A stretch of DNA of 64,000 bases from positions 13,268,001-13,332,000 of the forward strand of contig NC_092674.1 of the NCBI RefSeq assembly GCF_964355755.1, given 5' to 3'. Shown here in pieces: positions 22,980 to 60,198 of the stretch. Every line of letters begins with the position of its first letter. Within the stretch, counting starts at the first letter, position 1. The stretch is from Antedon mediterranea. Taxonomy: Eukaryota > Animalia > Echinodermata. The translations under genes were made by a program, and so were the position numbers. The notes beneath the pieces are model-generated. The model searched no databases. It was given only the letters and a program-made list of their open reading frames with translations, and was not told where the DNA came from.

Positions 22980-24815
22980 TTTAGGTATGCTATGTACGCC
23001 GGTACGCTCTTTAAATTTTAAAATTAAATATTTATTTAATCACACTGAATTATATTATAGTAACACTTATTATTAATGTTTGTAACACTTACATTTCTTG
23101 GAAGATCGAATTTAGCACCAGCCTTGAGCAAAATAGTGCAAACATCTGTGTGGCCGTTTTGTGCAGCCAAATATAAAGGTGACGCTCCATCCTGAAACAT
23201 TACAAACATGATGTTATAGTAGTTTTCACTCTAAACAAAGTATTAATATTGTACTGAAATAAATACGATGTTATCAATTAAAAATAACGTTATGGATTCA
23301 AATAATGCTACTTTGTTAAATTAAATAAAGATTATTAACCTCTGGTGTTTACTTTAAGATAATGTATTGTATACGTATACATTGGTCTTGTTTGTATAAT
23401 ATTGTTCATATAAGTACTGTACAATTGTAAACCAAATAAGTGTTTCTTTGCCTTTATCAGGTAGTGCTGACAAGTGTAAATTATGATAAGGTGGCGTTTG
23501 AACTGGCAGTTATGACAAAAAATATAATACTAGGATCCAAATTCTGTTCAACTAAATACTTACTATTGACTTTGTTTTAGTTACTGGGCTGCAATAGTTT
23601 TTTTTTTAGTTTTTTTTTTTTTAAAGATGTTTTACTAAATCAAATTGATATATCAATTCATATCCATTTAATGTATCATTTTCATAAATAAATAATGTAG
23701 CTCTGTATAGTACAATACAATACAGAAACAGAAAAGTCACCATTCAAAAAAAATCAGTCTCTAACATTCAGTGTTCTAAATGCAGATGTTAAAACTATTA
23801 CGGAATCTATTTGCACAAGGGGTGATGGACCGCTTCCTTGAACTTCAAAAATAGTACATGCGATAGGTTGGGTCTTGTTGAATCGAATGTGTTTTCTTAG
23901 TAAAGTATCTAATGATTCAAATTGAGATCTGCTTGAGATCTGCTCTGCTCGTGCCATGTTTATACCCTTACCCTTTATTGGTCGTGCCTTTTTTAAGATC
24001 ACTAGTGATTTATTTACAATCTTCAGAGTGGGTACCGTATTAATTTCATATTGTAGGTGAGTTTACGTTATAAAATGTCTTCATTGTTTTCAATTGTTTT
24101 CACCTGCTTTGATAGAGACAATACTGTTAATAATTGTTTATTAGTAAACACATAGTGTACACAAAACCAACCTAGTGTATTTTGTGCACATAATAGTGTG
24201 TAACATTTGTAATTTAGAGCGTTTATTTGACACGACAAAGCATGTGAACTCCTGAAAACGTACAGAATCATAATAATGTAGTACATATTGAATTTTGACG
24301 TAATGATTGTTGTTGTTTTTTTAGACCACACTAAGTGGTTGGTGTAACTTCACAATAATGATAATATAATGAAACATCATATGTTAGTCACCTTAATATG
24401 GTCATTTGCCATATACAGTTGAACATTCGTGAGTGGTCACCTCCCGTAGTTTCAAAAGCCCGTTTGTTCTTCATCAAATTAGTGGACCTCCTGTAAGCAG
24501 CCATCTCATGTGAGCGGCCGCGGAACTTTTTTTTTTCTCTTTTGTGAGGTTCACTCAACTTTATTTCATTTCAAAACATAAATAAAAAATTGTATTATGT
24601 TTGTATATTATTTTTTTTAATATATACTATTTTCATTCATAGACATAAAGTTTTCTCTTACATCTAAAAAAAACTCTGCAAGATATCATTTAATTTATAC
24701 ATTTACATTACATTTAAACTGAAAACAATATCAATAAATATGGAAAATCAAAATCAACTCAATAACCGGTTGCTTGTAGAGTATAGCATTTTCTATGCTC
24801 TTTTTTTTTTACTCT
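22980..24815. repeat. Recent exon+intron duplication, near-identical to ~39095-40977
   Basis: Colinear, a few percent divergent by eye; includes ankyrin exons 23093-23191 and 39194-39292. Confidence 0.92.
23093..23191 (-). CDS. Ankyrin-repeat exon (DGASPLYLAAQNGHTDVCTILLKAGAKFDLPRN)
   Basis: 99 nt, CAG acceptor, GTAAGT donor. Confidence 0.93.
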
Positions 24816-29013: not shown

Positions 29014-30279
29014 AACAAATATTCAGTAAGCTTGTTGTGATCGCCGCGGGGTGTGTTATAAGGCGCAAGATGCAGGTTAGTTCCTCCTCGCGATCGTCGG
29101 TGTTCTGGCTGTGACGTCACATACAAATGTCGAAAGGTAACATTTCGTGACCAAATAACGACACACATAATGAATTGCTTTTTTTTTCATATATATAACA
29201 ATTTATTATTGAAACTCAATTTAACATAGTATCTACATATATTATTCTTGATACTGATAATAGTAAATGTCGTATTTGTCGAAAGTGTAGCACTAGCACT
29301 TTAAATAATTTGTGTAAACAGCGTTTGCCAACTGAAAAGTTTGGACTAGTGGCGAAGGCTTTAACCTATTACGATGGAGCCCTCGGTTCGAGGTCTTTCA
29401 AGAACATGTTTTTTTTAAATAGTTGAGAGAGATTATTTAGAGGGTTAGGTTTAGTATATTTAGGAAGTAGATCAGCTATCTTGCAATTCTTTATAATAGA
29501 AAATAATTAAGGTAATGAATTATTCATGATTTCTGCCTTATCTGACGAGTAAAGAAAATTTCGCGCCCGGGTCTCTGGTTTCCAGGGGCGTTGTCATATT
29601 ATCGAGAACCATTCATATACACTCACTAGAAGGTGAGAGAGCAAAGCAAACGAATCTAGTTATTATAAATACGCTAACATTTACCTCATGGAAGACATTT
29701 AGCTCGTAGTATTATGAACGTGCGCTTATAGCGCATCGTGGTGTTAAGCCGAATATAAAAAAATATTAGTGAAACGCGTAATAACATTGCAGTAATAATA
29801 TTTAATTCATAAATTTAATGAAAATATAATCAAACAAAACAATTGTTCTGGAAGTTGTTTAAGGGTTATTTTAAAAAAAAACACATCGACTACGATTTAT
29901 TTTTAAACAATGTTAATATGTTTTGGTATCGGAATATGTCATATTTTCGATGAATTAAATACACTTATTTTGATAGCTAAAAAATTTATATTCAACTGTA
30001 ACATTAAAGATGACCCACTGTATTTTAACAAATTTAAAGTCATTGTTAAAAGAAATATTGAAATAGAAACAAATGTTGATTTGAAAATGATAATATGCAT
30101 ACAACCTAAATGAACAAATTAGGAATATAATCTACCTTTTAACTACCATGATATGTATAAATGTTCGTTTGATTGTGTTTTGTTTTGTATGTTGTTGTTG
30201 AGAAGCATTTTGTTTGTCTTGTTGCTACAGCTGGTGGCGCATTGTTTCTTTTTTTGGAATTGAAATAATAAAAAAAAAT

Positions 30280-30450
30280 ATTACAAAGTGCGACAGGAGT
30301 TATTACAAAGTGCGACAGGAGTTATTACAAAGTGTGTGAGCTCGATTACTACAAAGTGCAAAGGTTATCACAAAGTGTGACAGTTGTGTAACCATGTGCG
30401 CACGACAGTTATTACACAGTATTATGTGACGATTAAAGTGCGACAATACA
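30280..30450. repeat. Minisatellite, ~21-bp unit TTATTACAAAGTGCGACAGGAG
   Basis: About 7 degenerate tandem copies. Confidence 0.8.
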
Positions 30451-31421
30451 AAGCGGGTTTAAAGATAGTTATTATAAGTAGAGAACATGATGGTATAGTC
30501 AGTCGTGGTTATAACAATGGTTAACAATGGGGATAGTATAAGACAATAGAGTATATCATTTCACTAGAATTGTTATATAGATTTGTTATATATTAATATA
30601 CATTATAATATAAAATTAATAAATATTAAATAAAAATGATATGGTGATTTAGTTGCTTGTGAACAAATGGTTTACAATGGTTGAAGTCAATAGGTGTTAT
30701 GTTTCGGATTATAATACAATGGTTAACATAGGGTAAGGAAGTGAGACAATAATAGTTTTTGTAAGATTTGAATTAGTCATGGATTCAATAAAGATGCACC
30801 TGGTTAATTAAAACTAGTTAATTGAGGTTTTTGCTTGATGTATGCCGACATAATACAAAGACATAAGTTATTTGATCCGGATATTATAACAATGACTAAA
30901 ACAAAAAGATAAGAATGAATAGTTAAATAGCGTTTACAGGCAAAATATAGGCAAAATTGTAAGTATTAGTCAGATGTACAAATTACTGAAAAACAAAATA
31001 TTACTAGGAAGTATGAAACAATAGGTATTGTGTTTCGGGGTATATAACAATATATGTTAAAGGTGTCTTCCGACATATAATTAATACGGGGTATTTTATA
31101 ACAAAGATAAAAATAAAAAGAAGACTATAATGAAGTGATATAATAAGTATGTCTTGCTTGATCTTTGGCGACATAATCCAAAGACATAAGGCATTTTCTT
31201 CCGGATATTTAAGATTTGAAAATAAACGTTATTTAAGTATGTACAATTAAGTAAATAAAAGGTAATCTTCTGATGTCATGCATAAATTAATTTATGTTTA
31301 AATATCGGGGGGGGGGGGAGGGGGTATTATTTGAAATTCTATGTCAGTGTTTTCAATTACATCGAAGTCACTCAAACTCTAGTACTAGTTCCAAAGTATT
31401 ACCGTTACACGAGGTTAAAAG

Positions 31422-31922
31422 ATGAATTCTAACGTGTATACCGGTAATGAACAAAAATTTGAAAACAGCAGTCTTAGCGGTAACGAGGAATTTTTGTTAG
31501 AAATTCTTGATGACAACGATGAAATGGTAAGTTGAATCAATTTGTACAAGAAAAAAAAAGAAATTTACGTATATTATTTTCAAAATGTTATTAAGATTTA
31601 ATTTGTTCTGTCTGTTACATGGGGTCTTGTTATTTAATTTTCAGATTCGATGTATAGAAGAGTTAATTGATGATCAGAACGAATTATGTAATGAAATGGT
31701 AAGTTACTATTTCTATAAATTTATTTTTAAAATGGTAATAATATATGATATTTAGTCTAATATAAACAACATTTTGTATTACAGTACGGTATTTTGATTG
31801 AAAGTAGTAATAACGAAAGGGAAGAAACACTTCAATTAGAGAATGACATGGCAGTTGCAGAAATTTGCCGCATTGCAAGAAACAAAAGAGGTAATTTAGA
31901 CGAAGAAGAAAATGATTTATGA
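31422..31922 (+). CDS. Spliced 98-aa acidic protein with an IxCxE motif (exons 31422-31526, 31645-31698, 31785-31922)
   Basis: Two GTAAGT...CAG phase-0 introns join an open frame from ATG to TGA; missed by the ORF track. Confidence 0.7.
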
Positions 31923-32109
31923 GTATGATTGCACTTCGACCAATGTTCCGACAGGAAATACAACAATGACAATTGGCTGAAACAAATTTAGTAAATGCCG
32001 AATGTAATCATTTGACTGTATATAACTCTCGATTATTTTGTAATCTTTACCTCATTCTACAACGCTACAGAGCTCGACAAGACAGACCAAAAACCAACAA
32101 CTAGTTACT

Positions 32110-32913
32110 ATGGTTTCCGTGATTGAAATCATTGATCTTACTATGGACTCTCATGTCGAAGAAGATGTTACATATATATAAGCAGTGATTCAGAATTTGA
32201 AGACGAAGACATACTAGCTATGACTGGTGCCTATTTTACAGCAGAGGAGGAGGAAGAGATGAGGGAAGAGATGGGGGATATGACGTGTTTAATGGTGATT
32301 CAACCCCCACCTCCAATGAACGTTGATTTCAATAATGTATCTAATACTGAAGAAGACGAACATTATAGATCGAGAATAATTTCTGAAGAGGAGAGGATTG
32401 TATACGACGACACGTCATCGGTAGTTGACTACCACCTATTTCTGGCAAGAAAAGCCGATATAGAAGATGAGGTAGAAGATGGGGTGTTTGCGGAAGAGTA
32501 CCTGAACCCTGTGCTGGGGATGGAAATTTAGAAAGAAACTACCGAACAATGATGAGGTGTTTACGGAAGAGTACTTGAACCCTGTGCTGGAGGCGGAAAT
32601 TAAGAAAGAAACTACCGAACTTAAGTACAAAGAAATAATGAGAACAATTGAGAAGGTTTTCAAAGAAGAATTTATATTCATTCTGAATGACATGGTTGAA
32701 CGTTATAACTTTCACGGCTCAAGATATGAGCAACTTCTAACAATTTTTCGACCAATTCTGGCATTGAAACTTGTGGACAATAGCGCTATCCATTTTGAAT
32801 GGGCGCTAAACTACTTTCATTTACGTTGTATCAATGTTGATGCGTTCGATAAAGCCATAAAGTTGATTACAAATGATTCAGAACTGTTTAATAAGATTCT
32901 TAACCAGTTGTAA
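32110..32913 (+). pseudogene. Left-arm copy of the acidic SIM-motif gene plus downstream helical ORF
   Basis: Mirror of 36327-37126; +2 insertion near 32170 and AAG>TAG at 32529-31; downstream part 32557-32913 open. Confidence 0.8.
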
Positions 32914-33159
32914 TTTATATAAATTTAAATATTATCATAACACTTTTAATTAATGTTATATATTTTTATAATTCTTATTTCTTTTCGGTAAATTTATTAT
33001 TATTATGGTTGTAAAATATATTGAAATAGAATGTGTGTTAAAATAAAGGTTGTGTGTTTTTTTTAAGGCAACAACGAAAATGAAATTTGATCTTTGCGTG
33101 GTATTTAAGTATTTGATTTATTTTTTTAATTTTAATTTGGTTGAATGAGGGTAATGAGT

Positions 33160-33390
33160 ATGGATGAGTACATAAGAAAAGTATATTACGATCTTAAGCA
33201 TCCTGATAGTTTAGGTGGTGTGGACCGACTTTATCAAAATGTAAAAGACGATTTAAATATTACCAAGAGACAAGTTCAAGACTGACTGTGCAAGCAAGAT
33301 ACATTATACATTACACAAATCCATTCAACGTAAATTCAAACGAAACTGGGTACTTGTAAGTGCTATTGATGAACAATGGGAACTGGATTG
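33160..33390 (+). pseudogene. Maverick/Polinton integrase N-terminal fragment
   Basis: MDEYIRKVYYDLKHPDSLGGVDRLYQNVK...VQD*LCKQDT/YTLHKSIQRKFKRNWVLVSAIDEQWELD; truncated at about the first catalytic Asp. Confidence 0.88.
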
Positions 33391-34869
33391 GGAAAAATAA
33401 CGTGTTTGCAAAATCAAAGGTTTGACTTTAAAGGAAGTCAATTTTGAAATAGTTGGTAGCATGGTACGGGTACTAATCCTAACAAAATAACCCGTAAACC
33501 AAAATCTAGCTTAATATTTATTTTATATTATAAATTTGTAAAAGTAGTTACCATATTTTAATTTATGGTAAATTTATTTTTCGAATTAATTTAATTTGTT
33601 TTCTTTTCTGTTGAATTTTTATTATTATTATGTTTGTAAAGTGTATTGCAATAGATTTGTTTAATGAAATAAATTAATTATGTTTTGACTTAATTTATGT
33701 CAGTGTAAATTTGTAAAAGTAGTTTCCCTATTTTAATTCATGATAAATTTATTTCTTTTCTGTTAAAGTTTTATTATTATTATTATGTTTTGTAAAGTGT
33801 ATTACAATAGAATGTGTATTTCAATAAATTTTGTTTTTAACATCAACAACAAAAATGAAATTTTATCTTTGCGTGTTGTTTAATTCGTGTATGATGTTTT
33901 TCTAATTTATTTATAAAAAAAACAAAAATTGACTTTAAATTTCAAAAAGTCAAAGGAATTCAATTTTGAAATAGTTAGTAGCATGGTACAAGGAATCGAC
34001 AAGGAAAAAATAACAACAATTAATTTAATTTAATTCTTCTTTTCTGTGGAATTATTATTATTATTATTATTATTATTATGTTTGTGAAGTGTATTGCAAT
34101 AGATTTGTTTAATGAAATAAGTTAATTATGTTTTGACTTAATTTATGTCAGTGTAAATTTTGTAAAAGTAGTTTTCCTATTTTAATTCATGGTAAATTTA
34201 TTTCTTGACTTAATTTAATTAGTTATCTTTTCTGCTGTTATATATATGTTTTTTAAGGTGTAGTGCAATAGAATGTGTATTGAAATAAATTTTGTTTTTA
34301 ACAGCAACAATAAAAATGAAATTTGATCTTTGCGTGTTATTTAATTCCTGTATGATGTTTTTCTAATTTATTTCTACAAAAAGAAAACACATTTTTGAAT
34401 TTGTTAAATGTAATTGCAAACACGCATAATAAATGATTGTGATTAAAAATATTCTGTTTACTTCTTTTATTTTAAACAGTAGGTCTATAATGTAAAGTTA
34501 TATTTTATAATATAATAAGTAATATTACAAAAATAAACATACACAATGTATAATGCATATATTTATTACATTTAAATACAATTTTTTTATTTCAAAATGA
34601 ATTTCATATTCTACGTGTTTTTCAATTTTAAATCTTTTAAGAAAGACACAATACGTACTGCTAAAAAAAAAACACGATATGTAACGACGGTTTCAATAAA
34701 AAGTCATATTATAAATGTATTTTTACCAAATTTATAAAGTAAAGGGTTATTATTGAGAAATATACATTTTAGATAAATGATAACACATCTAAAATTAATT
34801 AGAGAGATCAATACAATATGGTGTTCATAATAATTTGTTTTGATGACTAGAGGAAACATCTGAAGACAT

Positions 34870-35415
34870 TCAACAAAAAACAAGCGTTAACACCATACCA
34901 GTCACTAAGAATGCTACTACTCTGAAAAAAACATCTCCCTTCCTGCACACAAAAATTAAAATAATTAGTAAACGAAACACGCGCATTTTAAATAAAATGA
35001 ATAATTTAAGAATATTTGTTAAAATACCCACGAACAAAAAAAAAAGAAACATACTAACCGATTCATCGTCATTACGAAGTTCAAATAACGAAAACTTTTC
35101 CTTGAAAAATCCACAAGAGACACGTTTTACATTTTCTAACTGCATTTCAGTGTCACATTGTTTCGCAACACATGTACATACAACGAGTCCTGTCACAAGT
35201 CTGCCGAAATTTATTTTTTTATCGCTCATCATTTGTTCTAATACATAATACAGCGCTTCCGAAGAAATATCTTTACACAATTCTAACACATTAAAATTGT
35301 TTTCCAACTCTTTACAAGCACGAATAGTACTCTGGAGGATGGGTGAATCCAAAACAATTAACCCCGTCAATTTATATTAAATGTATGCTAAAACTACTTC
35401 CTCTAAATCAACCAT
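34870..35415 (-). pseudogene. Bcl-2-family homologue in the palindrome spacer, with one in-frame TAA at codon 13
   Basis: BH4-like EEVVLAYI*YKL, BH3-like ILQSTIRACKELENNF, BH1-like YVLEQMMSDKKINFGRLVTGL, hydrophobic C-terminal tail; intronless. Confidence 0.8.
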
Positions 35416-35847
35416 AACGCTCGACAAAACAAATGATAATGGATGTAATTACCATGAAAGTTACAACTTAAAACATTTTAAAGAAATAAATTTATCATGA
35501 ATTAAAATAGGGAAACTACTTTTACAAATTTACACTGACATAAATTAAGTCAAAACATAATTAATTTATTTCATTAAACAAATCTATTGCAATACACTTT
35601 ACAAACATAATAATAATAAAAATTCAACAGAAAAGAAAACAAATTAAATTAATTCGAAAAATAAATTTACCATAAATTAAAATAGGGTAACTACTTTTAC
35701 AAATTTATAATATAAAATAAATATTAAGCGAGATTTTGGTTTACGGGTTATTTTGTTAGGATTAGTACCCGTACCATGCTACCAACTATTTCAAAATTGA
35801 CTTCCTTTAAAGTCAAACCTTTGATTTTGCAAACACGTTATTTTTCC

Positions 35848-36078
35848 CAATCCAGTTCCCATTGTTCATCAATAGCACTTACAAGTACCCAGTTTCGTTT
35901 GAATTTACGTTGAATGGATTTGTGTAATGTATAATGTATCTTACTTGCACAGTCAGTCTTGAACTTGTCTCTTGGTAATATTTAAATCGTCTTTTACATT
36001 TTGATAAAGTCGGTCCACACCACCTAAACTATCAGGATGCTTAAGATCGTAATATACTTTTCTTATGTACTCATCCAT
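35848..36078 (-). pseudogene. Right-arm copy of the integrase fragment
   Basis: Reverse complement of 33160-33390 with the same TGA and frameshift, plus an extra CAA>TAA. Confidence 0.88.
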
Positions 36079-36685
36079 ACTCATTACCCTCATTCAACCA
36101 AATTAAAATTAAAAAAATAAATCAAATACTTAAATACCACGCAAAGATCAAATTTCATTTTCGTTGTTGCCTTAAAAAAACACACAACCTTTATTTTAAC
36201 ACACATTCTATTTCAATATATTTTACAACCATAATAATAATAAATTTACCGAAAAGAAATAAGAATTATAAAAATATATAACATTAATTAAAAGTGTTAT
36301 GATAATATTTAAATTTATATAAATTACAACTGGTTAAGAATCTTATTAAACAGTTCTGAATCATTTGTAATCAACTTTATGGCTTTATCGAACGCATCAA
36401 CATTGATACAACGTAAATGAAAGTAGTTTAGCGCCCATTCAAAATGGATAGCGCTATTGTCCACAAGTTTCAATGCCAGAATTGGTCGAAAAAAATGTTA
36501 GAAGTTGCTCATATCTTGAGCCGTGAAAGTTATAACGTTCAACCATGTCATTCAGAATGAATATAAATTCTTCTATGAAAACCTTCTCAATTGTTCTCAT
36601 TATTTCTTTGTACTTAAGTTCGGTAGTTTCTTTCTTAATTTCAGCCTCCAGCACAGGGTTCAGGTACTCTTCCGTAAACACCTCA

Positions 36686-37126
36686 TCATTGTTCGGTAGT
36701 TTCTTTCTTAATTTCCGCCTCCAGCACAGGGTTCAGGTACTCTTCCGCAAACACCCCATCTTCTACCTCATCTTCTACATCGGCTTTTCTTGCCAGAAAT
36801 AGGTGGTAGTCAACTACCGATGACGTGTCGTCGTATACAATCCTCTCCTCTTCAGAAATTATTCTCGATCTATAATGTTCGTCTTCTTCAGTATTAGATA
36901 CATTATTGAAATCAACGTTCATTGGAGGTGGGGGTTGAATCGCCATTAAACACGTCATATCCCCCATCTCTTCCCTCATCTCTTCCTCCTCCTCTGCTGT
37001 AAAATAGGCACCAGTCATAGCTAGTATGTCTTCGTCTTCAAATTCTGAATCACTGCTTATATATATAACATCTTCTTCGACATCAGAGTCCATAGTAAGA
37101 TCAATGATTTCAATCACGGAAACCAT
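36686..37126 (-). CDS. Acidic 146-aa protein with two N-terminal SUMO-interacting-like motifs (right-arm copy, open)
   Basis: VIEIIDLTMDSD and VIYISSDSE; TATA-like sequence upstream; continues in another frame into a repeat (EEYLNPVLEAEIKKETTE x2) and a helical region to ~36327. Confidence 0.7.
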   Translation of the reverse strand: MVSVIEIIDLTMDSDVEEDVIYISSDSEFEDEDILAMTGAYFTAEEEEEMREEMGDMTCLMAIQPPPPMNVDFNNVSNTEEDEHYRSRIISEEERIVYDDTSSVVDYHLFLARKADVEDEVEDGVFAEEYLNPVLEAEIKKETTEQ

Positions 37127-37314
37127 AGTAACTAGTTGTGGGTTTTTGGTCTGTCTTGTCGAGCTCTGTAGCGTTGTAGAATGAGGTAAAGATTACAAAA
37201 TAATCGAGAGTTATATACAGTCAAAGGATTACATTCTGCATTTACTAAATTTGTTTCAGCCAATTGTCATTGTTGTATTTCCTGTCGGAACATTGGTCGA
37301 AGTGCAATCATACT

Positions 37315-37816
37315 CATAAATCATTTTCTTCTTCGTCTAAATTACCTCTTTTGTTTCTTGCAATGCGACAAATTTCTGCAACTGCCATGTCATTCTCTAA
37401 TTGAAGTGTTTCTTCCCTTTCGTTATTACTACTTTCAATCAAAATACCGTACTGTAACACAAAATGTTGTTTATATTAGACTAAATATCATATATTATTA
37501 CCATTTTAAAAATAAATTTATAGAAATAGTAACTTACCATTTCATTACATAATTCGTTCTGATCATCAATTAACTCTTCTATACATCGAATCTGAAAATT
37601 AAGTAACAAGACCCCATGTAACAGACAGAACAAATTAAATCTTAATAACATTTTGAAAATAATATACGTACATTTCTTTTTTTTTCTTGTACAAATTGAT
37701 TCAACTTACCATTTCATCGTTGTCATCAAGAATTTCTAACAAAAATTCCTCGTTACCGCTAAGACTGCTCTGTTTTCAAATTCTTGTTCATTACCGGTAT
37801 GCACGTTAGAATTCAT
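37315..37816 (-). pseudogene. Right-arm copy of the spliced IxCxE gene
   Basis: Mirror of 31422-31922 with a +2 (AG) insertion in exon 1 near 37770. Confidence 0.65.
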
Positions 37817-39193
37817 CTTTTAACCTCGTGTAACGGTAATACTTTGGAACTAGTACTAGAGTTTGAGTGACTTCGATGTAATTGAAAACACTGACATAGA
37901 ATTTCAAATAATACCCCCTCCCCCCCCCCCACCCCGATATTTAAACATAAATTAATTTATGCAGGACATCAGAAGATTACCTTTTATTTACTTAATTGTA
38001 CATACTTAAATAACCTTTATTTTCAAATCCTAAATATCCGGAAGAAAATGCCTTATGTCTTTGGATTATGTCGCCAAAGATCAAGCAAGACATACTTATT
38101 ATATCACTTCATTATAGTCTTCTTTTTATTTTTATCTTTGTTATAAAATACCCCGTATTAATTATATGTCGGAAGACACCTTTAACATATATTGTTATAT
38201 ACCCCGAAACACAATACCTATTGTTTCATACTTCCTAGTAATTTGTTTTTCAGTAATTTGTACATCTGACTAATACTTACAATTTTGCCTATATTTTGCC
38301 TGTAAACGCTATTTAACTATTCATTCTTATCTTTTTGTTTTAGTCATTGTTATAATATCCGGATCAAATAACTTATGTCTTTGTATTATGTCGGCATACA
38401 TCAAGCAAAAACCTCAATTAACTAGTTTTAATTAACCAGGTGCATCTTTATTGAATCCATGACTAATTCAAATCTTACAAAAACTATTATTGTCTCACTT
38501 CCTTACCCTATGTTAACCATTGTATTATAATCCGAAACATAACACCTATTGACTTCAACCATTGTAAACAATTTGTTCACAAGCAACTAAATCACCATAT
38601 CATTTTTATTTAATATTTATTAATTTTATATTATAATGTATATTAATATATAACAAATCTATATAACAATTCTAGTGAAATGATATACTCTATTGTCTTA
38701 TACTATCCCCATTGTTAACCATTGTTATAACCACGACTGACTATACCATCATGTTCTCTACTATTATATATGAGATTTTTTTTTTTTTCAAGACAGTTTA
38801 TCAGGAACCGATCCATATTTTGTTCTTTCTTGAGTAAAGTTTCGGGATCATTAATTTGACAAATAATAGTTCTTTGGTGAGATCTTGCTTGGAAGTTTCC
38901 AGGTCTCGGGGTTTAAATGACCGCGACTTTTAAACTATCATTGGTTGATCTAACTGCCCAATGTCAAGATTAACCTTGACGAAGTAGCGGTGTTCCGAAC
39001 CATGTTAGGGGTACAACCGTGCAGTTCTCGACAATACAGTAATCCTCGATACAAAATATGAAATGATATATGACCCGCAATGTGAGTTGGTTCATTTAGG
39101 TATGCTATGTACGCCGGTATGCTCTTTAAATTTTAAAATTAAATCACATTGAATTATATAGTAACACTTATTATTAATGTTTGTAACACTTAC

Positions 39194-39292
39194 ATTGCTT
39201 CGAAGATTCAATTTAGCACCAGCCTTGAGCAAAACAGTGCAAACATCTGTGTGGCCGTTTTGTGCAGCCAGATATAAAGGTGACGCTCCATC
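39194..39292 (-). CDS. Ankyrin-repeat exon (DGASPLYLAAQNGHTDVCTVLLKAGAKLNLRSN)
   Basis: 99 nt, CAG acceptor, GTAAGT donor. Confidence 0.93.
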
Positions 39293-39696
39293 CTGAAACA
39301 TTACAAACATGATGTTATAGTAGTTTTCACTCTAAACAAATTATTAATATTGTACTGAAATCAATACGATGTTATCAATTAAAAATAACGTTATGGATTC
39401 AAATAATGCTACTTTGTTAAATTAAATAAAGATTATTAACCTCTGGTGTTTACTTTAAGATAATAGATTGTATACGTATACATTTGTTTTGCTTGTATAA
39501 TATTGTTCATATAAGTACTGTACAAATGTAAACCATATAAGTGTTTCTTTGCCTTTATCAAGTAGTGCTGACGAGTGTAAATTATGATAAGGTGGCGTTA
39601 GAACTGGCAGTTATGACAAAAAATATTATACTAGGATTCAAATTCTGTTCAACTAAATACTTACTATTGACTTTGTTTTACTTACTGGGCTGGAAT

Positions 39697-39734
<38 letters not shown>

Positions 39735-40977
39735 TGTTTTACTAAATCAAATTGATATATCGATTCATATCCATTTAATGTATCATTTTCATAAAATAAA
39801 TAATGTAGCTCTGTACAGCACAATACAATACAGAAACAGAAAAGTCACCATTGAAAAAAATCATTCTCTAACATTCAGTTTTCTAAATGCAGATGTTAAA
39901 ACTATTACGGAATCTATTTGCACAAGGGGTGATGGACCGCTTCCTTGAATTTCAAAAATAGTACATGCGATAGGTTGGGTCTTGTAAAATCGAATGTGTT
40001 TTTTTAGTAAAGTATCTAATGATTCAAATTGAGATCTGCTTGAGGTCTGCTCTGCTCGTTTGAGTTCAAACGTGTCATTTTGTGCCATGTTTTTCCCTTA
40101 CCATTTATTGGTCGTGCCATTTTTAAGATCACTAGTGATTTATTTACAATCTTCAGAGTGGGTACCGTATTAATTTCATATTGTAGGTGAGTTTACGTTA
40201 TAAAATGTCTTAATTGTTTTCAATTGTTTTCACCTGCTTTGATAGAGACAATACTGTTAATAATTGTTTATTAGTAAACACATAGTGTACACAAAACCCA
40301 CCTAGTGTATTTGTGCACATAATAGTGTGTAACATTTGTAATTTAGAGCGTTTAATTGACACGATAACGCATGTGAACTCCTGAAAACGTACAGAATCAT
40401 AATAATGTAGTACATATTGAATTTTGACGTAATGATTGTTGTTGTTTTTTTAGACCACACTAAGTGGTTGGTGTAACTTCACAATAATGATATAATGAAA
40501 CATCATATGTTAGTCACCTTAATAATGGTCATTTGCCATATACGATGATTTAAAAATTCAGAGTTTTAATATTATAGTATTACAGTTGAACATTCGTGAG
40601 TGGTCACCTCCCGTAGTTTCAAAAGCCCGTTTGTTCTTCATCCAATTAGTGGACCTCCTGTAAGCAGCCATCTCATGTGAGCGGCCGCGGAAATTTTTTT
40701 TTTCTCTTTTTTGAGGTTCACTCAACTTTATTTCATTTCAAAACATAAATAAACAATTTTCCTATGTTTGTATATTATTTTTTTTAATATATACTATTTT
40801 CATTCATAGACATAAAGTTTTCTCTTACATCTAAAAAAAACTCTGCAAGATATCAGTTATACATTTACATTACATTTAAACTGAAAACAATATCAATAAA
40901 TATGGAAAATCAAAAGCAACTCAATAACCGGTTGCTTGTAGAGTATAGCATTTTCTATGCTCTTTTTTTTTTACTCT

Positions 40978-41685
40978 TCTTTTTATTGTTTTTCCCTTTT
41001 TTTTCTTCTTTTTTCTGTTTTATTTGCACTATTTACATTTTTGTACAAATTACTTTATTTACAGTAGGCTTAACCTTCAAAATAAAAATTAATAAATACA
41101 TTCATGTATGGTATACTCTTGTGTAAGTATATGTTTAAACATTATCCATGAGTTTTTACAGACTGACTTATTTAATTCTGACAATATTTTTATTTTGTAT
41201 ATAGAATATAGAGCAATTGAGTATAACTTATTTTTTATGTTGCATTCAGACCCAAAAACAAGTTCTTCAAAAGTACAGTTACTATTATCTAACCTTTTTA
41301 ATATCTCATTGATTTTTTTCCATTATAAGACATTGCTTTTACATTTGAAAAACATGTGCTTTTCATCTTCAGTTACATCACATAACTCACATTTTTTTGT
41401 GTTCTTAATATTCCATTTATATAATTGTACATTTGTTGGTAAAACTCTAAGAAGCAATTTGTAATTTAGTTGTGCATATTTTTGGTTTTTCTAATTTTTT
41501 ACTTTTCTTGACCAAATATTAAACCAGTTCGTACTTTTAATATCAATTTCTTTTTCCCATTTGGGAATAGTAATAGGAGCAACAAACCTACCTTCTATAA
41601 AACTTGAATATATCTGTGTTGTTTTCATCTGAAATATTTTATTTATTTTATAATCATCTGAATTTAATTTAACACTATCTCCATT
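40978..41685 (-). pseudogene. 3' fragment of an L1/Tx1-clade LINE (zf-RVT region)
   Basis: KLLLRVLPTNVQLYKWNIKNTKKCELCDVTEDEKHMFFKC...WKKINEIL...LVFG; A-rich tail where the match to 24815 breaks. Confidence 0.8.
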
Positions 41686-44157: not shown

Positions 44158-47100
44158 CACCCGATTCTGCTACTGTCCACAGGTGCTATCTTTAAAACTA
44201 TAGCAAGTTATACACGTTGTTGTCTGCTATAAATGCTGTACTTTTAACACACGGTACACTGTCTGTAGCACAGTGTGTGTTGACAATTTACAATGATGTA
44301 CAACCATAGGCAGGTTTTCGTACTGCCATGCAAGAATGGATAGGTGTTTTCCGCCGCTTTTAGGCCTTCTAGTCAGTTATTGTTATTATTATACGAATTA
44401 CGTAATTGGTCTAGTAGCTCATCTACCTTTTTAGCAGGGCATAATGAATATTGTAGCTAGGCTAGGGCTACTAGTCTAGCGGAAAATCAACCAATTATTT
44501 GGTTGGATACGAGTTTAGGGTAGGAAGTTAAGTACGAGTTGGCATGGGTACGAGACGACCAGGGGTGAATCGACCAGAGTACACCCGGCTGCCCTACTAG
44601 AGCATAGGCTACAGGCCTGCAGGAATGGGAAATCTGTCTTAGCTATAGGCATAGGCCTACATTGGGACGCCCAAAAAAGCCATCATATGAGCATAAAAAG
44701 GCCTCGTAGAGCCAGACATGTTAACATACACTACACAGTACTAGTACGTCTACCATTTATTATAGTTCCATGGTACTACGGATCACTACTATCTAGGTCT
44801 AGTAGTAGTAGTAGGCTAGCTAGGGTAGGGTTCCAGTAATTTTGGTCGCGTTTTTTCAGGAGGGCATGCGAGAGGTGAGGTAGGTTAGCCCAGCTAGGCT
44901 AAACTAACATGTAAGTAGTATTCTACCATGGGATGGGAACGAGTCGGCATGGGGGTACGGGTTGATCTTTATCCGTATTCTATGATGCTGGTCAACCCGT
45001 AAAGTACCCATGTCAACTCGTACCAAACTTGGCTAACTCGTACCCAAATAATTGGTCAACTCGTACCAATAGCTTTATAGCTTTATTGATAGCTGGGTTC
45101 AAATCTAGTTTGGGACGTTTTTTTCTCATTCTAAAACAGATTTCCTTATAATAATAAAATAATATCGACCTATGAATTTAACTGTAATATTGTATTGTAT
45201 GCATAATATTAGTAGTAAAAGTAATTCCCATTGAATTTATTATTATAATATATTTTACGGTAACCCCTTAATTATACTATAGTATAACTTCCTTGTTATA
45301 TTTTACAATATTTTCTTCATAATTCAACAATTTTTTTTCACAGCTAATTATCAAACTGAATCATCACACACCAAATCTCATGAAATCTCTAGTGTATTTC
45401 TCCAAGCTAATCCAGCTACATGGTATTGCCTTGAGGCTAAACTACACTGTATACTGGGCACTACCATCATTCCTGGCCCGTCAACCTGGACCACATTATG
45501 GTCCAACACAGTCGTGTAGTACTGATTCCAAATAGTGAATTACATCCTGTGGTCAAGGATTTATTTGCACTTATGCTTATTTCCTCCAACATACCGTAGA
45601 GTACGTAGGGCTTTTAATTTGCTTTTATACCTGTTAATTAAAAAATCGTTTATGCCTATTGTTGCATAAAGATCAAATTTAGACTGTAAATACTGGGATG
45701 ATCACCCTACATTTTCTTTTTCATTTAACAATTTTATATTTCACAGCCAGAAAAAAGCATACAGAGTTTTTTTATTCATAACTGTTGAATTGCATCCCAA
45801 TACATGGTACCTATTGGTATTATATCTATAATAATAAAGTACTCTCTTATAAATAGATCTTTCCAAACCACTCCAACTACATAATCTAATAATAGTACTA
45901 TTAGCATACTACTGTACACTTTGTAGACAAGAAATAAGTTGTATCCACCTAGATGACTTATGTTAGTATTGTACAGTCGATCGTCCTCTCACTAGTCTGG
46001 TCAACATAATCTACGCCTAGATTATTACAGTAATTAAAGTACATTATTACAGAGATTTTTTTTTTCAGAAATCAAAGTTATGTGTATAGAAAGCAGTACT
46101 CGTATTAAAAACTAAGCAGGTTGTACTCTTGAACGCCAGCTGGCAGGAATATTTTGAATATTTGTTGTTGTTGAAATGATGGAATCCTAACTTCAATTTC
46201 CACGAACTGGAGACGAAGACATATTACGACCCTTTTATTTAAATTTATTTGGATAGACATCCATGTAAATTCATTAAAGGCTATATGATTGTTTTATATT
46301 TTAATATGTGATAGTAGAAAATCATTGTGTATAATGAGGACTATGAATCTGATATTTACTTGCATTCTCATCTTTTTAAAATTTTATTTATAATGCTGGT
46401 AATGAATTTACTATTGAAAAAGTCATGTGTCCACTTATCTCAAATTGTGGCACACCTCTAACCTTGGTAGAACTGACTGTGTTCTATATGAGTACATTTA
46501 ATTTGCCATTATAGTAGTGTTTCCACCATACTTGAACCTGGTAATTGAATACATTTCATCGGGGTAAAATTATCACCTTTAACATAAAGTATCCTCCTGA
46601 AACATGTATTTGTACTGTACTTCATCTACTATTCATTTAATTACTTAATACTAATTTGGGTGATTTATGTCTAACTTCAGGAATGATCTGAGGCTAGAAG
46701 AACGAATTTCTGCACATATAGTTTATATAAAAAATAAACCAATGTTTTCCTAAAAAGTTAACCCCTAGGTTGATAACTAACAAAGAAATTATTAAAATTG
46801 TGTTCTCACAATATATGTGTACTGTATCTACATATGCATACTGCTGTACTTGTTTTTAACCGCATAATGGCATTTAAAAAAAAGAATGTTTTATAATTAT
46901 TATGTTATTTCCAAATATTAAAGGTCTGAAACAGAAACTAAATGTTACCAAACTATGTTTTTGAAAATCTCTATGATATAATATAATAATATGAACATAA
47001 TATTAAATTATATTGACTATTTTTGATAATCGTCATGTCCTTATAAATTCATTTATATTTCTTTTGTGTAATATAGTTCATATATTATGTATTAAATAAA

Positions 47101-50100
47101 TTGGTAAGGCCCTATACTGTTTATATTTAAGGAAAGTTTATTATACACTATTATTTTATGCCTACCAATATTAGTATTAATTGTTTATGTAACTATTTTG
47201 TCTAATTGCATTGATTTTTTGTATAGGCCAATGGAATTAATGTTTTCTCAAATCAAATTAGCCTATTATAATGCCATATTTAGACACATAGATCATTGAT
47301 TTCTGATATTCTGTACTTGTGTATGCATTACTAAAATAGTAGATATTTTATTTCATTTATAATGTATGTATAAACTTTTATTCAGTTTTTTTTTACATTT
47401 TTAAGTTTAAAAATTATTAGAATACCTATCTACGTTTCTGTTATTGTTACTATTATAATATTTTTTGAGGCAGATTGATTTCATTAAAAACATTTTAAAC
47501 AATTAATTTGATTTATACTGTACTATGTTAGTTCAGGAGATGAAGTGTGTGTTGGTAGAATCTGGTGTGTTGGAGGTTGGTGATGTGAGGTGTACTTTTG
47601 TCACTTTAAGACCTAAATTAGATGTTTTCTGAAGAAAAGTGGATAGGATTTCAAACAACTCCAAGAAGATTCACACAAAAATAATTACTTCCCAATAAAA
47701 TAGTATGTAACAGTGTATATTACACTACATTGAATAAACTCGAGCGGAAAAATAACACACATAAAAATCATTAATTTCCTTGTCGAAAAGCGCCCTCTCT
47801 AGTTTTCTATTAATTTATTAATAATTATTATTAATTAATAAGTAATATAAACTTATTTTTAACATTAATGCTGGAAGCTGATTCTACTCCTAACAAGGTG
47901 TCATACCTCCAAATTTCGTCAACGTATTCAAAGCACTTCAATAAATATCACATTGAACATTAAAAATTAGGGTTATGGATAGAATTTTGCTTAAAAACAT
48001 ATACAAAAAACATCGATAAAAAATACTTTTCGAATTTAAAAACATTTGAAACTTCTTTTATATGTTCAATATAGGTTGCTCTATTCACAGAAACAAAATT
48101 TCATTCATGAACGTTTTTTGTTGGTTGTTTTTTTCAAAATCGTTATTAGGTTTAAAAAATGCATTGGAATTGTATGGTCTTTCATAAGTGTACATTTTGT
48201 AAAAACTTAAATTTAAAAAAACAGTAATATGGCTCGATAGTTTTTTTTTGCAATATGGATGGAGCAACCTATATTGAACATTTATACCAAGTATCAAATG
48301 TTTTTGAATACGAAAACTATTTTTTATCGATGTTTTTTGTATATGTTTTAAGCAAAATTCTATCCAAAACCCTAATTTGTAATGTTCAATGTGATATTTA
48401 TTGAAGTGCTTTGAATACGTTGATGAAATTTGGAGGTATGAAACTTTGTTTGGAGTCGAATCAGCTTCAAGCATCAAATGTTAAAAATATGTTTATATTA
48501 CTCATTAATTAATAATAATTATTAATAAATTAATAGAAAACTAGAGAGGGCGCTTTTCGACAAGGAAATGAATGTTTTTTTATGTGTGTTATTTTTCTGC
48601 TCGAATTCATTCAATGTACTTTAATATACACTATTACATACTATTTTATTGGGAAGCCTATTCGCTTCAGAAATCAATGAATTATGTGTCTAAATATGGC
48701 ATTATTAGGCTAATTTGCTTTGAGAAAAACATTAATGCCATTGGCCTATACAAAAAATCAATGCAATTAGACAAAATAGTTACATAAACAATTAATACTA
48801 ATATTGGTAGGCATAAAATAATAGTGTATATAAACTTTCCTTAAATATAAACAGTATAGGGCCTTACCGATTTATTTAATACATAATATATGAACTATAT
48901 TACACAAAAGAAATATAAATGAATTTATATTATAAGGACATGATGATTATCAATATAATTTAATATTATGTTCATATTATTATATTATATCATAGATATT
49001 TTCAAAAACATAGTTTAGTAACATTTAGTTTCTGTTTCAGACCTTTAATATTTGGAAATAACCTACAGTATAATAATTATAAAACATTCTTGTTTTCAAT
49101 GTCATTATGCGGTTAAAAACAAGTACAGCAGGATGCATATGTAGATACAGTACACCTATATATTGTGAGAACATAATTTCTATAATTTCTTTGTTAGTTA
49201 TCAACCTAGGGGTTAAATTATTAGGAAAACATTAGTTTATTTTTTATATGTGTACAGAAATTCGTTCTTCTAGCCTCAGATCATTCCTGAAGTTAGACAT
49301 AAATCACATAAAATAGTATTAAGTAATGGATATTAGATGAAGTACAGTACAAATACATGTTTCAGGAGGATACTTTATGTTAAAGGTGATAATTATTTTA
49401 AATGTTACCCCAATGAAATGTATTCAATTACCAGGTTGAAGTAGTATGATGGAAACACTACTATATGTACTCATGTACGTACTCTGTATGTTAGAGGAAA
49501 TAAGCATAAGAGAAAATAAAGCCTTGACCACAGGATGGAATCAGTAGTACACGACTGTACTTATGTGTGGGCTAGGAATGATGGTAGTGCCAGTATACAG
49601 TTTAATTTAGCAATACCATGTAGCTGCATTAGCTTGCAGAAATACAGTAGAATGATTTCATGAGACTTGGTGTGTGATGATTCAGTATGATAATTTGTGC
49701 TGTGAAAAAAAAAATTGCTGAATTATGAAGAAAATATTGTAAAATATAACAAGGAAGTTATACTATAGTTACTATAATTAAGGGGTAACCGTAAAATATA
49801 TAATAATAATAATAAATGCTATGGGAATTACTAATATTATGTAAACAATACAATATTAAGTTAAATTCATAGGCCGATATTATTTTATTATTATAAGGAA
49901 ATCTGTTTTTGAATGAGAAAAAGCCGTCCCAACCCAGATTTGAACCCAGTATCAATAAAGCTATAAACAGAATAGACCGGAATTTAGCGTAGACCTACTC
50001 GAGGCCTAGTAAGATTAGCTAGAAGAATACAGGTCAACCCGTACCAATTCCAACTCGTAACCAAATTTTGGTTTATTCGTACCCAAAATGTTGGCTCACT

Positions 50101-51071
50101 CTCGCAATCATCAAGGGCTGGCTCGTACTCTTCATGGGCTGACCAGTATCCATGTTTAATGCTATTAAAAGTTTGGGTACAGGTTAGCCAAAGTTGGTAC
50201 GATTTGACCAATTATTTGAGTACGGGTTAGCCAAATTGGGTACGAGTTGGCATGGGGGTTGACCAGCACCCTAGAAAATGATAAGGGTCAACCCGTACCA
50301 CTGTGCCAACTCGTTCCCATGCTGGAATACTACTTACAGGTTAGTTTAGCCTAGCTGGGCTAACCTACCTCACCTCTCACATGCCCTCCTGATAAGTAGG
50401 CCGAAAACGCGACCGAAATTACTAGGCCTAGCCTAGATAGTAGTGATCCGCAGTATAGTACCATGGAACTATAGTATAATAAATGGTAGACGTACTAGTA
50501 CTGTGTAGTATAGGCTAACACGTCTGACCTGTTTATGCTCATGGGATTGCTTTTTTGGGCGTCCCAATGTAGGCCTATGCCTATAGCTAGGACAGATTTC
50601 CCATTCCTGCAGGCCTGTAGCCTATGCTCTAGTAGGGCGGCCGGGTGTACCCTGGTCGATTCACCACTGGACGACTCGTACCCATGCCAACTCGTACTTA
50701 ACTTCCTACCCTAAACTCGTATCCAACCAAATAATTGGTTGATTTCCCGCTAGACTAGTAGGCCTAGCCTAGCTACAATATTCATTATGCCCTGCTAAAA
50801 AGGAAGATGAGCTACTAAACTAATTACGTAATTCGTATAATAATAACAATAATTGACAAGAAGGCCTAAAAGCGGCGGAAAAGACCTATCCATTCTTGCA
50901 TGGCAGTACGAAAACCTGCCCATGGTTGTACATCGTTGTAAATTGTCAACAGGCACTGTGCTACAGACAGTGTACCGTGTATTAAAAGTACAGCATTTAT
51001 AGCAGACAACAACGTGTATAACTTGCTATAGTTTTACAGATAGTACCTGTGGACAGTAGCAGAATCGGGTG
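44158..51071. mobile_element. 6.9-kb foldback DNA element, possibly P/Galileo-like and non-autonomous
   Basis: Termini CACCCGATTCTGCTACTG...CAGTAGCAGAATCGGGTG; arms pair inward to ~48082/48260; flanks AAATATA / CAATATA (7 bp, 1 mismatch); joined flanks match the paralogous intron at ~6530-6960. Confidence 0.85.
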
Positions 51072-56869: not shown

Positions 56870-58310
56870 ATAGTAAACCAATAAAACTTACGTTGGCAAG
56901 ACAGTTTCGTCTAGCTGTCATCTTGACTTCTTCAGTTGCTATGATGCGTTATGTCTACGACTGGTCTACTTTCCATCCACTAGATGTTTTTGTTGTGTAG
57001 CCAGGGGACCAGTCGTCGTCAGAAGCTGATCGTAAATGTGAGATAGTTGGTGCGCGCCTTCGTCTCTATTCATCTTTGTATTTTTATTTTGCTTTCTTAT
57101 GCTGATGCTTTCTTTAATTTTACGTTTAAGCCAAACTTGTTCTTTGTGTAGTACCTCTATCTTATCCCAGTTAGGTATGTGGTTGTGTGTGGTCATATGG
57201 TCCGTGATCGCTGATTTATGTAAAATGGAGGACGAAACTTTCCGTGATGCACGCGTCTGTATGTTCTGTGTGTTTTCCTCAACATCTTTCTTGTGTTCTT
57301 TAATTTGGTTTTGAGTGCCCTACCCGTTTCCCCAATGTACACCATCTCACAGTTGGTGCAACCCACTTTGCAGACAACACCACAGGAATCCTCTTTGCAT
57401 GCTTTATCTTTCGGTCGGACGATTAAGTTTTTTATTTTGTTAGATGGTTTAAAGTATGTTCGTATGTTATATTTTTTAAATGTTCTCTTGATTTTCTCTG
57501 ACAGGCCTTGAATATAAATGGGATGGATATCGACCCTCTTATGTCTTCTGTTTCGGGGTGTGTGTCCGTTTTTTGTTTATCTTAGTTACGTTGTACCTTT
57601 CTAATCGTCCATGTAGGGTAGTTACATTGTTTAAGTGAAGTATGTATATTCTTAGTTTCGTTCTGTTTGTCTGTATTATTTGTGATTATCGTGTTACATC
57701 TGTGTAGAGTGTGCGGATAACGGATAACTTGTGTTGTAGAGGATGATGTGAGTTAAAGTCCAAGTATTGATTTGTGTGGGTGGCTTTCCTAAAAACTTTA
57801 GTGTTGATGTTGCCTTCCCCATCAACTAAAACTAGTGTATCCAAGAATGGGATAGAGTTGTCTGTTAAGGACATTTCTTCGCAAGTGAAATTAATGGCAT
57901 CATCGAAGTGTTGTAATAATGGTTGTGTCGCATCCTTGGGAATTATTGTTATAATGTCATCTACATACCTTTTCCATATCCTCGGTTTTATGTCGGTATG
58001 AGCTGTAGTTATTGCCTCATTTTCCAGCCATTCCATAAATAAATTCGCAACAATCAGAGAACATGGACTACCCATGGCCATACCTGAATTTTTCTGGTAG
58101 ATATCCCCTCTGAAATATGTGGTGTTGAGTACCAATTGAAGCAATTCCATAATGTCGTTGATATGTAACCACGTTCTCTCTGATAGTTGTTTATCACAGT
58201 GTAAGCGTTCTTCAGTTATTTTGAGAGACTTGTTGTCTGGTGTTTTGGTAAATAATGACACTACATCATAAGAGACCAATGTTTCATTTGGCTGTAACTA
58301 TCAAAGAACT
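56870..58310 (-). mobile_element. Penelope-like retroelement, 5'-truncated (RT + GIY-YIG)
   Basis: SYDVVSLFT, GMAMGSP, WKRYVDD, PFLD, FRKATHTNQYL; then YIGETG, SAITDH, RKIKESISI, MNRDEG; frameshifted. Confidence 0.93.
56896..56939 (-). ncRNA. Minimal type I hammerhead ribozyme in the Penelope terminal repeat
   Basis: GCAA-CUGAAGA-AGUC(loop)GAC-GAAA-CU-GUC-UUGC: conserved core, stems I and II, GUC cleavage triplet. Confidence 0.75.
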
Positions 58311-58536
58311 ACTTATATCATTAATGTATGTATTTTTGTATATTATTGTAATATTCGATGTTTTTTTTTACTATTATAATGTCAATTATTATCCTATTGG
58401 AAATAAGGATTTAGGCGAAACCAGCCTAGTAATTTGAATTTCTACAGACGCCCATTAAATTGTAAAATTGTTATTATTTTTTTTAATCAAACTGAATTAT
58501 ATAGCACCTGTTATTAATAATATTTGTAACAATTAC

Positions 58537-58635
58537 ATTGTTTGGAAGATCAACTTTAGCACCTGCCTTGAGCAATATAGTGCAAACGGCTGTGTGGCCC
58601 TTTTCTGCAGCCGTATTTAAAGGTGACCATTCATT
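58537..58635 (-). CDS. Ankyrin-repeat exon with a mutated acceptor (NEWSPLNTAAEKGHTAVCTILLKAGAKVDLPNN)
   Basis: Open 99-nt repeat with GTAATT donor, but the acceptor reads CAA instead of CAG. Confidence 0.7.
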
Positions 58636-58911
58636 TTGAAATAATTACAAACATCATGTTATTGTAGTCTTCTACAAAAAGCTAATTAATATTGTATTTA
58701 AGTCAATTCTATGTGATCAAGAAAAATTATCTTAAAGGCCAGATGAGGGGAAAGAATTCCTATTAATCTTACATTCCAATATCTATATTTTCCCCTATGT
58801 TTCATAGTTGATGGGATTTTATTTGTAATTGGTCAGATGTTTTGCTCTACTCTGACGTAATTTATTCTTCATATTAAGTACATTATTGAGAACACTTTCG
58901 CATTCCAATTA

Positions 58912-58960
58912 GTTCTCGGGTGGGACTTGAACCCACGACCTCCAGATCGCTGATCTTTCG
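58912..58960 (-). mobile_element. tRNA-related SINE fragment
   Basis: GGTCGTGGGTTCAAGTCCCACCCGAG T-arm/B-box; no D-arm or acceptor-stem partner found. Confidence 0.4.
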
Positions 58961-59473
58961 CTGATGACTAGTGGTTAGATTCAAGCCCAAAGTAAGCAGC
59001 GGGTACTGTACCAACAGGGTTGTAATTTTATTAAACAACTGTGGAGAGTAGGGCAAAACTCCATGACGCAAAGCTACTCCAAAGTAGTTTAATACAATTA
59101 CAACCCCCGATTTAATTTGTGTTACACAAGATTGTTGAAAATAAGCACTTTATTATCAGTCAAATTACACAATGTAATATCTATTCTTTTGTACACAAAT
59201 GTTGAAAATAGAGAGGCATTTTAATTTATTGATGATAAAAAGTTTATTATTACTGTAACCGAATTAGTCATGATATACGATGAATTTAAATCAGGTATAT
59301 TAAATTAGAAGTAGTCGTGATCTTTGAAATTATAATCATGAATATTGTCCATGTTAATAATCTAAAGTAATATTTTTTTTAATGACGTCACCTTTATACA
59401 ATAGGACACCGGTTTTTGTAGAGAGTTCGAAATAGAAATGGTTAGGTTAGTCAGTGTGTGCTCTAAATTGAGC

Positions 59474-59987: not shown

Positions 59988-60198
59988 TGGCTCCCTCAAG
60001 GACGTAAACTAATTACATTAACATTGAAGTCCTTGTAAATTAAATATAAAAGTTCTTGTTGAAACATAACATATAAGTACACTCAAAAGTTCTAATGCAT
60101 ATCCAAGCAAAAAGTTCATATTAAAATAAACAAATTTCTTGATTCCATTTTCTCAATACGCATCAAACGGTTGGCTCCCTGACTGGGATTGGACCACT

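Follow-up and report, generated by a model that had tools for sequence, protein, structure and literature searches.

The 64,000-nucleotide stretch of DNA analysed here (the window) contains a Bcl-2-like gene, broken twice, that resides at the centre of a palindromic, non-autonomous mobile element of the Maverick/Polinton class. The reading that best accommodates the evidence, to which we assign a probability of roughly 0.7, is that this gene likely consists of two exons and was likely captured from a host as DNA, and that intact copies would give rise to a short, tail-anchored protein that blocks cell death. An initial annotation, made from the nucleotide letters alone, had presented the gene as a virus-style Bcl-2 homologue; the Bcl-2 likeness and the Maverick/Polinton carrier speak for this description, but the underlying argument, that a compact and intronless gene is of the viral kind, is probably wrong.

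Reading frame and Bcl-2 homology

On the reverse strand, positions 35415-34870 comprise an ATG, 11 further codons, a TAA and a frame that stays open from there to a TGA, for a total of 181 codons; the TTG-start ORF at 34870-35370 lies in the same frame. The sequence thus reads as previously described, with an in-frame ATG at 35415 upstream of the TTG-start ORF and the TAA between the two. The gene falls within the non-repeated centre of the palindrome, the right arm being 65 bp away, and its features are the following:

35377..35379, reverse strand: premature stop at codon 13 (lesion 1), TAA; a sense triplet in the covering contigs of sequencing runs X2 and X5
35059..35415, reverse strand: putative exon 1 of the Bcl-2-like gene, 119 codons, with a BH3-like helix, BH1 NFGR at residues 69-72 and a degenerate BH2; based on profile and sequence matches and a donor site
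34954..35058, reverse strand: putative intron, of which 105 bases are left in the window copy; T-rich, with a branch-like CTAAT at 34968-34964, AG-free after 35055
34951..34957: lesion 2; about 22 bases present in other copies are missing here, likely with loss of the splice acceptor
34870..34953, reverse strand: remainder of putative exon 2, 27 codons, with a hydrophobic tail (predicted membrane anchor) and a stop
34562..34591, reverse strand: two AATAAA words, candidate poly(A) signals of a kind frequent by chance in AT-rich DNA

A variant genetic code, in which TAA would be read through, was considered and rejected: TAA ends other ORFs in the element (32911-32913), and the stop at codon 13 is absent from other copies.

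Among 24,736 Pfam models, PF00452 was the sole family matched by the 181-residue read-through, with an X at the stop (25 bits, E 2.8e-5; profile positions 15-79 of 100 aligned to residues 36-100), and the better of two families matched by residues 14-119 (E 5.8e-6, 27.2 bits), both scores lying below the curated gathering cut-off of 31.4 bits. Beginning at residue 36, the aligned region does not include the N-terminal segment that the initial annotation had likened to BH4. The comparison with the Pfam Bcl-2 profile, which the initial annotation had proposed as a check, accordingly returned a significant match, yet one under the cut-off. Removal of residues 120-181 raised the score from 25 to 27.2 bits, and neither these residues nor the overlapping ORF on the opposite strand matched any Pfam family. 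The motif INFGRLV, which had been suggested to represent BH1, occupies residues 68-74 and includes the groove Gly-Arg pair (Gly71-Arg72); its NFGR core aligns to NWGR in both fowlpox FPV039 and NRZ, with Phe at the position where Trp is expected. BH2 is degenerate: consistent with the earlier remark that no GGW is visible, there is none in the translation, and the profile match stops at position 79 of 100. The Gly-Asp core typical of killer Bcl-2 proteins is absent from the BH3-like helix.

Searches against the PDB retrieved FPV039 as the best sequence match, with E 0.016 for the query that includes the hydrophobic part and E 0.021 for residues 14-119. In the former search, the remaining four of the five matches were to a permease and aligned to the hydrophobic part, and in the latter both matches were Bcl-2 proteins. 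Structure models were built from the single sequence and compared using Foldseek, the scoring of which also takes sequence into account. For the model of residues 14-181 (pLDDT 59), all 44 of the 44 best rows were Bcl-2-family entries, at a top E value of only 0.091, and the comparison with viral models placed the adenovirus E1B small T protein first (E 0.025), with mixed rows beneath. For residues 14-119, the model was of low quality (pLDDT 41), with the HIV matrix protein ranked first (E 1.0) and Bcl-2 entries appearing from rank 12. Neither model yielded a Foldseek match at E 0.001 or better, although the helix pattern is consistent with Bcl-2. The proposed structural check on the repaired protein is hence ambivalent, being favourable in the identity of its best matches and not in their E values. 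Protein searches for homologues of the gene yielded none among 243 candidates and, subsequently, none for a single candidate, and locus searches of viral and metagenome contigs identified no close homologue. Homology to Bcl-2 is supported primarily by the profile, with weak agreement from the fold.

A palindromic, non-autonomous Maverick/Polinton

As the initial annotation had noticed, the gene is located at the centre of a palindrome, in unique sequence between two arms of 3,282 and 3,283 bp. The element and its boundaries are as follows:

30471..30476, forward strand: left target-site duplication ATTATA, 6 bp; random pairs of 6-mers from the window agree at a frequency of 0.0006
30477..38762: non-autonomous Maverick/Polinton derivative, 8,286 bp, with ends AGTAGAG...CTCTACT
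30477..33758, forward strand: left arm, 3,282 bp, with 27 substitutions and 6 gaps relative to the right arm
33759..35479: unique centre, 1.7 kb, holding the Bcl-2-like gene and incomplete repeats of an AT-rich unit
35480..38762, reverse strand: right arm, 3,283 bp, the genes of which run toward the Bcl-2-like gene on the same strand
38763..38768, forward strand: right target-site duplication ATTATA, identical to the left one

The arms are 98.8% identical, and 80% of the element is inverted repeat; with 27 sites and 6 gaps separating the two arms, the palindrome is not an echo of the assembly procedure. For vertebrate Mavericks, the accessible part of PMC8097293 names a perfect 6-bp duplication and (AG)3 or (AGT)2 ends as criteria; the AGTAGAG end is a mix of both published vertebrate motifs and an exact match to neither. 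No ORF in the element is of the size of a protein-primed polymerase, capsid protein, ATPase or protease gene. Given the 6-bp duplication, the AGT/ACT ends, the presence of an integrase stump and the absence of core genes, the element is a non-autonomous Maverick/Polinton derivative. Five viral contigs share a 17-base word at its end and have nothing else in common with it, so that this resemblance was discounted as chance, and an Rfam scan of positions 30000-39300 gave no match.

Each arm carries three genes, listed here with their mirror copies:

33154..33400, forward strand: integrase stump, about 75 N-terminal codons, adintovirus-type on comparison by eye; one stop and one frameshift
35838..36084, reverse strand: mirror copy of the integrase stump, with the same two lesions and one extra stop
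32110..32913, forward strand: acidic orphan gene with SUMO-interacting-like words; two ORFs, split by a 73-bp tandem duplication
36324..37126, reverse strand: mirror copy of the acidic orphan gene, with the same 73-bp duplication
31422..31922, forward strand: small acidic gene of three exons (35, 18 and 45 codons), separated by phase-0 GT-AG introns of 118 and 86 bases, with IxCxE in exon 2
37314..37816, reverse strand: mirror copy of the three-exon gene, with exon 1 frameshifted

Every gene of the window copy is thus damaged in one arm or both. The stump lacks the catalytic core; compared by eye with the N-terminus of the AdintoBK011002 integrase, as given in the accessible portion of the PMC11071296 supplement, it agrees at about 30 of 75 positions. 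A protein search recovered no homologue of the stump (none of one candidate), viral contigs lent it no significant support, and the protein-cluster search, with recognition below its threshold, returned unnamed clusters at 0.95-0.96 and one cluster at 0.84 that has Integrase_H2C2 on 12% of its members. The acidic orphan gene, in which we take IIDLT and IYISS to be SUMO-interacting-like words, had no homologue in Pfam, protein-cluster and metagenome contig searches. The 98-codon three-exon gene, for which no convincing Pfam match was obtained, is a possible Rb-binding ‘Oncoid’ acting through IxCxE. Since the contig depth of its region in runs X5 and X9 is about one-tenth that of the remainder, the three-exon gene may be present in only some copies of the element.

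An AT-rich unit recurs at 33058-33150, 33830-33910, 34290-34370 and 35480-35700, preceding the integrase stump and the Bcl-2-like gene, and is found in inverted orientation behind the Bcl-2-like gene as well. It is a possible shared promoter module, the inverted unit of which could drive an antisense RNA.

Related copies in sequencing runs

Parts of the stretch are contained in 18 of the 21 listed sequencing runs, which span six organism codes and a metagenome label, and the contigs of five of these (X1, X2, X5, X9 and X10; four organism codes) were compared with the window. At codon 13, the contigs of X2 (two) and X5 (five) have a non-stop triplet at all covering depth, the site being without coverage in X1 and X9. 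The question of whether the TAA is a sense codon in other copies, posed by the initial annotation, can thus be answered affirmatively for all covering contigs of X2 and X5, and the comparison supports the view that, where other copies cover the site, the stop is a lesion of the window copy. The gene is not, however, one nonsense codon away from being intact, as had been claimed. Near position 34950, bridging contigs exceed the window by 22 (X2), 20 (X9) and 22 (X10) bases, the contigs of X1 and X5 break, and none of the pieces listed bridges the site without extra bases. Because the bridging contigs carry these 20-22 extra bases, the window copy has a second lesion. With its early stop and likely missing acceptor, it is predicted to yield no working protein and to be dead.

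The same contigs illuminate the history of the element. In X2, X5 and X9, the integrase stump is joined straight to inner non-coding sequence; the cut-down form is therefore a trait of the family. The 73-bp duplication is missing from X5, X9 and X10, as is the extra base of the stump from contigs of X2, X5 and X9. In the window element, the duplication and the integrase frameshift are common to both arms, which makes it likely that one arm was copied from the other at a time when this damage already existed.

A likely intron at the BH2 position

Several features of the sequence make it likely that the gene comprises two exons, with an intron at the BH2 position. G|GTTAGT, which has one mismatch to GTRAGT, directly follows codon 119 in phase 0. 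Over the 105 bases past this donor, the T content is ~53%-54%, compared with 34% in the core; the branch-like CTAAT lies 15 bases ahead of the gap site, and about 100 bases are free of AG. The sequence present in other copies at the gap near 34950 is rich in pyrimidines and includes an AG. Furthermore, the donor is 50 residues beyond the BH1 Asn, and extrapolation of the Pfam alignment puts the end of the profile at about residue 121; in cellular Bcl-2 proteins, the BH2 Trp stands ~52 residues beyond the BH1 Asn. Introns are not foreign to the element, the three-exon gene having two further ones of the GT-AG type. According to the accessible text of PMC8998228, the coding sequence of pro-survival Bcl-2 genes is divided in two at the BH2 Trp in animals from sponge to mouse, and the final exon encodes the tail, whereas the genes for Bax, Bak and Bok are made up of 4-6 exons. 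The probable intron position of the cellular type points to a host gene captured as DNA.

Two claims of the initial annotation have to be revised on these grounds. The gene had been called intronless, and is probably composed of two exons given the phase-0 donor near the BH2 intron site of cellular genes; the hydrophobic anchor had been placed in what is likely no coding sequence. The first hydrophobic stretch (residues 120-154) is probably the T-rich intron translated by chance, the 181-residue product being a likely artefact of reading through the intron, and the last 27 codons, which are in frame with exon 1, hold the likely true tail anchor.

An intronless gene, in which 35058-34954 encodes a long hydrophobic segment and the missing bases shift the frame of the tail, appears unlikely. 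Many viral Bcl-2 genes are intronless, the frame is open throughout the stretch, and no spliced joint is present among the contig joints listed for X1, X2, X5, X9 and X10. X2, which is possibly RNA, is uninformative on splicing, because its RNA nature is a guess and it contains intron sequence of the three-exon gene. When the 105 bases were shuffled, 1,672 of 20,000 sequences (8%) were free of stops, and 1,348 of these 1,672 were membrane-spanning-like, so that an open frame of this kind is not rare. An intronless gene would leave the coincidence of the donor, the branch-like word, the AG-free run and the BH2-boundary position to chance and would not account for the higher Pfam score upon omission of residues 120-181; it would also produce three membrane-like segments, which is not known as a Bcl-2 layout. 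Copies further differ by numbers of bases that are not multiples of three, the contigs of other runs showing differences of +5, -4 and -3 bases over 34989-35115. Five of the listed pieces of exon 1 are ungapped, but three diverged pieces of low depth have gaps there too, and decay can hence account for some of the length differences among copies.

Within the two-exon reading, an acceptor at 34945-34943 was rejected, other copies differing in sequence there. A further candidate at 34922 would give a different last exon and has two AG words immediately upstream, which counts against it.

Comparison with known systems

The Bcl-2-like gene is a further member of a published class of Maverick cargo. 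Adintoviruses encode Bcl2 and IAP homologues, according to the accessible part of Starrett et al. (2021; PMC8502044), and the consulted portion of the supplement to Buck et al. (2024 preprint; PMC11071296) lists an adintovirus with a Bcloid directly before the integrase. These Bcloids are, likewise, short and diverged Bcl-2 homologues beside an integrase in elements with terminal inverted repeats, whereas the window element has, of the core genes, an integrase stump only, consists of inverted repeat over 80% of its length and has a likely spliceosomal intron in its Bcl-2 gene; the accessible text of the two sources makes no mention of introns or palindromic forms. The part of Widen et al. (bioRxiv 10.1101/2022.07.12.499685) available to us describes intron-containing cargo between the terminal repeat and the integrase of nematode Mavericks. 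Such cargo is similarly of host type and intron-bearing, but consists of proteases and kinases in largely complete elements, as opposed to a Bcl-2 homologue behind an integrase stump in a non-autonomous palindrome.

With the cellular pro-survival genes (Bcl-2, Bcl-xL, Mcl-1, A1 and Bcl-B/NRZ; PF00452), the window gene has in common the BH1 Gly-Arg and, probably, the helical core and the division into two coding exons at BH2 with the tail last (PMC8998228, accessible text). It differs from them in the lack of GGW, Phe for Trp in BH1 and almost no loop past helix 1, and in being below the Pfam cut-off, mobile and multi-copy. The genes of FPV039, adenovirus E1B-19K and iridovirus GIV66 are compact with a degenerate BH2, like the window gene, whereas their core is not known to be split at BH2. 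FPV039 is the best sequence match (E 0.016) and E1B the best viral fold match (E 0.025), both being weak and indicative of no special kinship. The accessible parts of PMC6431247 and bioRxiv 10.64898/2026.10.13.758929 hold nothing further on Bcl-2 cargo, and a search mostly of the open literature, with some supplements unread, retrieved no publication on palindromic Bcl-2-carrying Mavericks. Within that literature, a palindromic satellite with a likely intron-bearing Bcl-2 gene is a variant that we did not find in print.

Proposed function and alternative readings

We propose that a host pro-survival gene was captured as DNA, intron included, by a Maverick-type element. Exon 1, with its 119 codons, would provide the helical core and the BH1 groove with Gly71-Arg72, and exon 2, beyond the intron at the BH2 position, the membrane tail. 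By analogy with the family, the protein would reside on mitochondria and bind Bak/Bax or BH3-only proteins via their BH3 helices. The cell, above all a germ cell, would thereby survive the alarm raised by DNA ends or DNA breaks during the burst of copying, in which the element replicates as linear DNA and an autonomous helper copies and integrates it in trans through its ends. The arms likely derived one from the other by copy-back replication or conversion, after some of the damage.

A broader proposition, which we put forward tentatively and consider doubtful, is that palindromic Maverick satellites have been reduced to a cassette for control of the host, comparable to the E1 region of adenoviruses and uniting a Bcl-2 death blocker, possibly an Rb-binding IxCxE protein and a SUMO-binding protein, with host genes taken together with their introns; such satellites would spread through the germ line, and possibly across species, by keeping alive the cells that replicate helper Mavericks.

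The gain lies in the element family; the window copy is dead, and Bcl2 cargo in this class has already been published. If the intron is real, the gene shows how a virus-like element came by its Bcl-2, namely through uptake of a host pro-survival gene in DNA form, and is intermediate between the cellular and the viral genes of the family. Should selection act on it in copies that have lost every replication gene, it becomes testable whether germ-line cell death limits the spread of Mavericks and whether satellites earn their keep by providing a survival gene.

The degenerate BH2, the Phe in place of Trp in BH1 and damage to every gene of the window copy in at least one arm would also fit a Bcl-2-derived gene with another role, be it as a neutral passenger, as a factor that is dominant-negative or promotes death, or now in the service of the host. 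We deem this improbable: the likely two-exon layout is of the pro-survival type, as opposed to the 4-6 exons of Bax, Bak and Bok, the BH3-like helix is without the Gly-Asp core of killer proteins, and the gene is retained in copies from four organism codes although the integrase is truncated there too. That a helical orphan protein matches Bcl-2 by chance would agree with the score under the Pfam cut-off, the failure of two protein searches to find a homologue and the non-significant fold matches, but is very hard to reconcile with E 5.8e-6 against 24,736 models, two PDB sequence matches for exon 1 that are both Bcl-2 proteins, an intron-like boundary at the position typical of the family and the known Bcl2 cargo of the element class. 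Equally far-fetched is a palindrome arising from misassembly or from foldback of another class of transposon with acquired Maverick pieces, for which the lack of polymerase, capsid, ATPase and protease genes and the similar contig depths of arm and centre, not 2:1 (depth being no copy number), could be adduced, but which is contradicted by the 27 sites and 6 gaps between the arms, the 6-bp duplication at both ends, and other runs, in which the stump adjoins the same inner sequence and contig joints to the opposite strand occur next to the gene.

The surrounding window

The window consists of animal-type DNA of ~32% G+C with remains of retroelements. Just to the left of the element lies a short tandem repeat of the TTACAAAGTGCGACA type (30279-30460), where the contig depth of X2 and X5 is very high; the adjacency of the two implies insertion of the element at the border of another repeat. 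The word TAGGCCTA, common in echinoderm DNA, occurs 22 times in the whole window, where ~0.6 occurrences would be expected by a hand estimate. A 1.8-kb segment is duplicated at 23000-24800 and 39150-40980, 16.1 kb apart, with ~97% identity. A second, older palindrome of ~6.9 kb occupies positions 44158-51071; its ends read CACCCG...CGGGTG, its arms match at 89%-99% in patches, and it has neither a clear target duplication nor a long ORF. Finally, nested and broken retroelement-like ORF remains are found at 56966-63716, which we take, from their motifs, to be reverse transcriptase, integrase and gag-like pieces.
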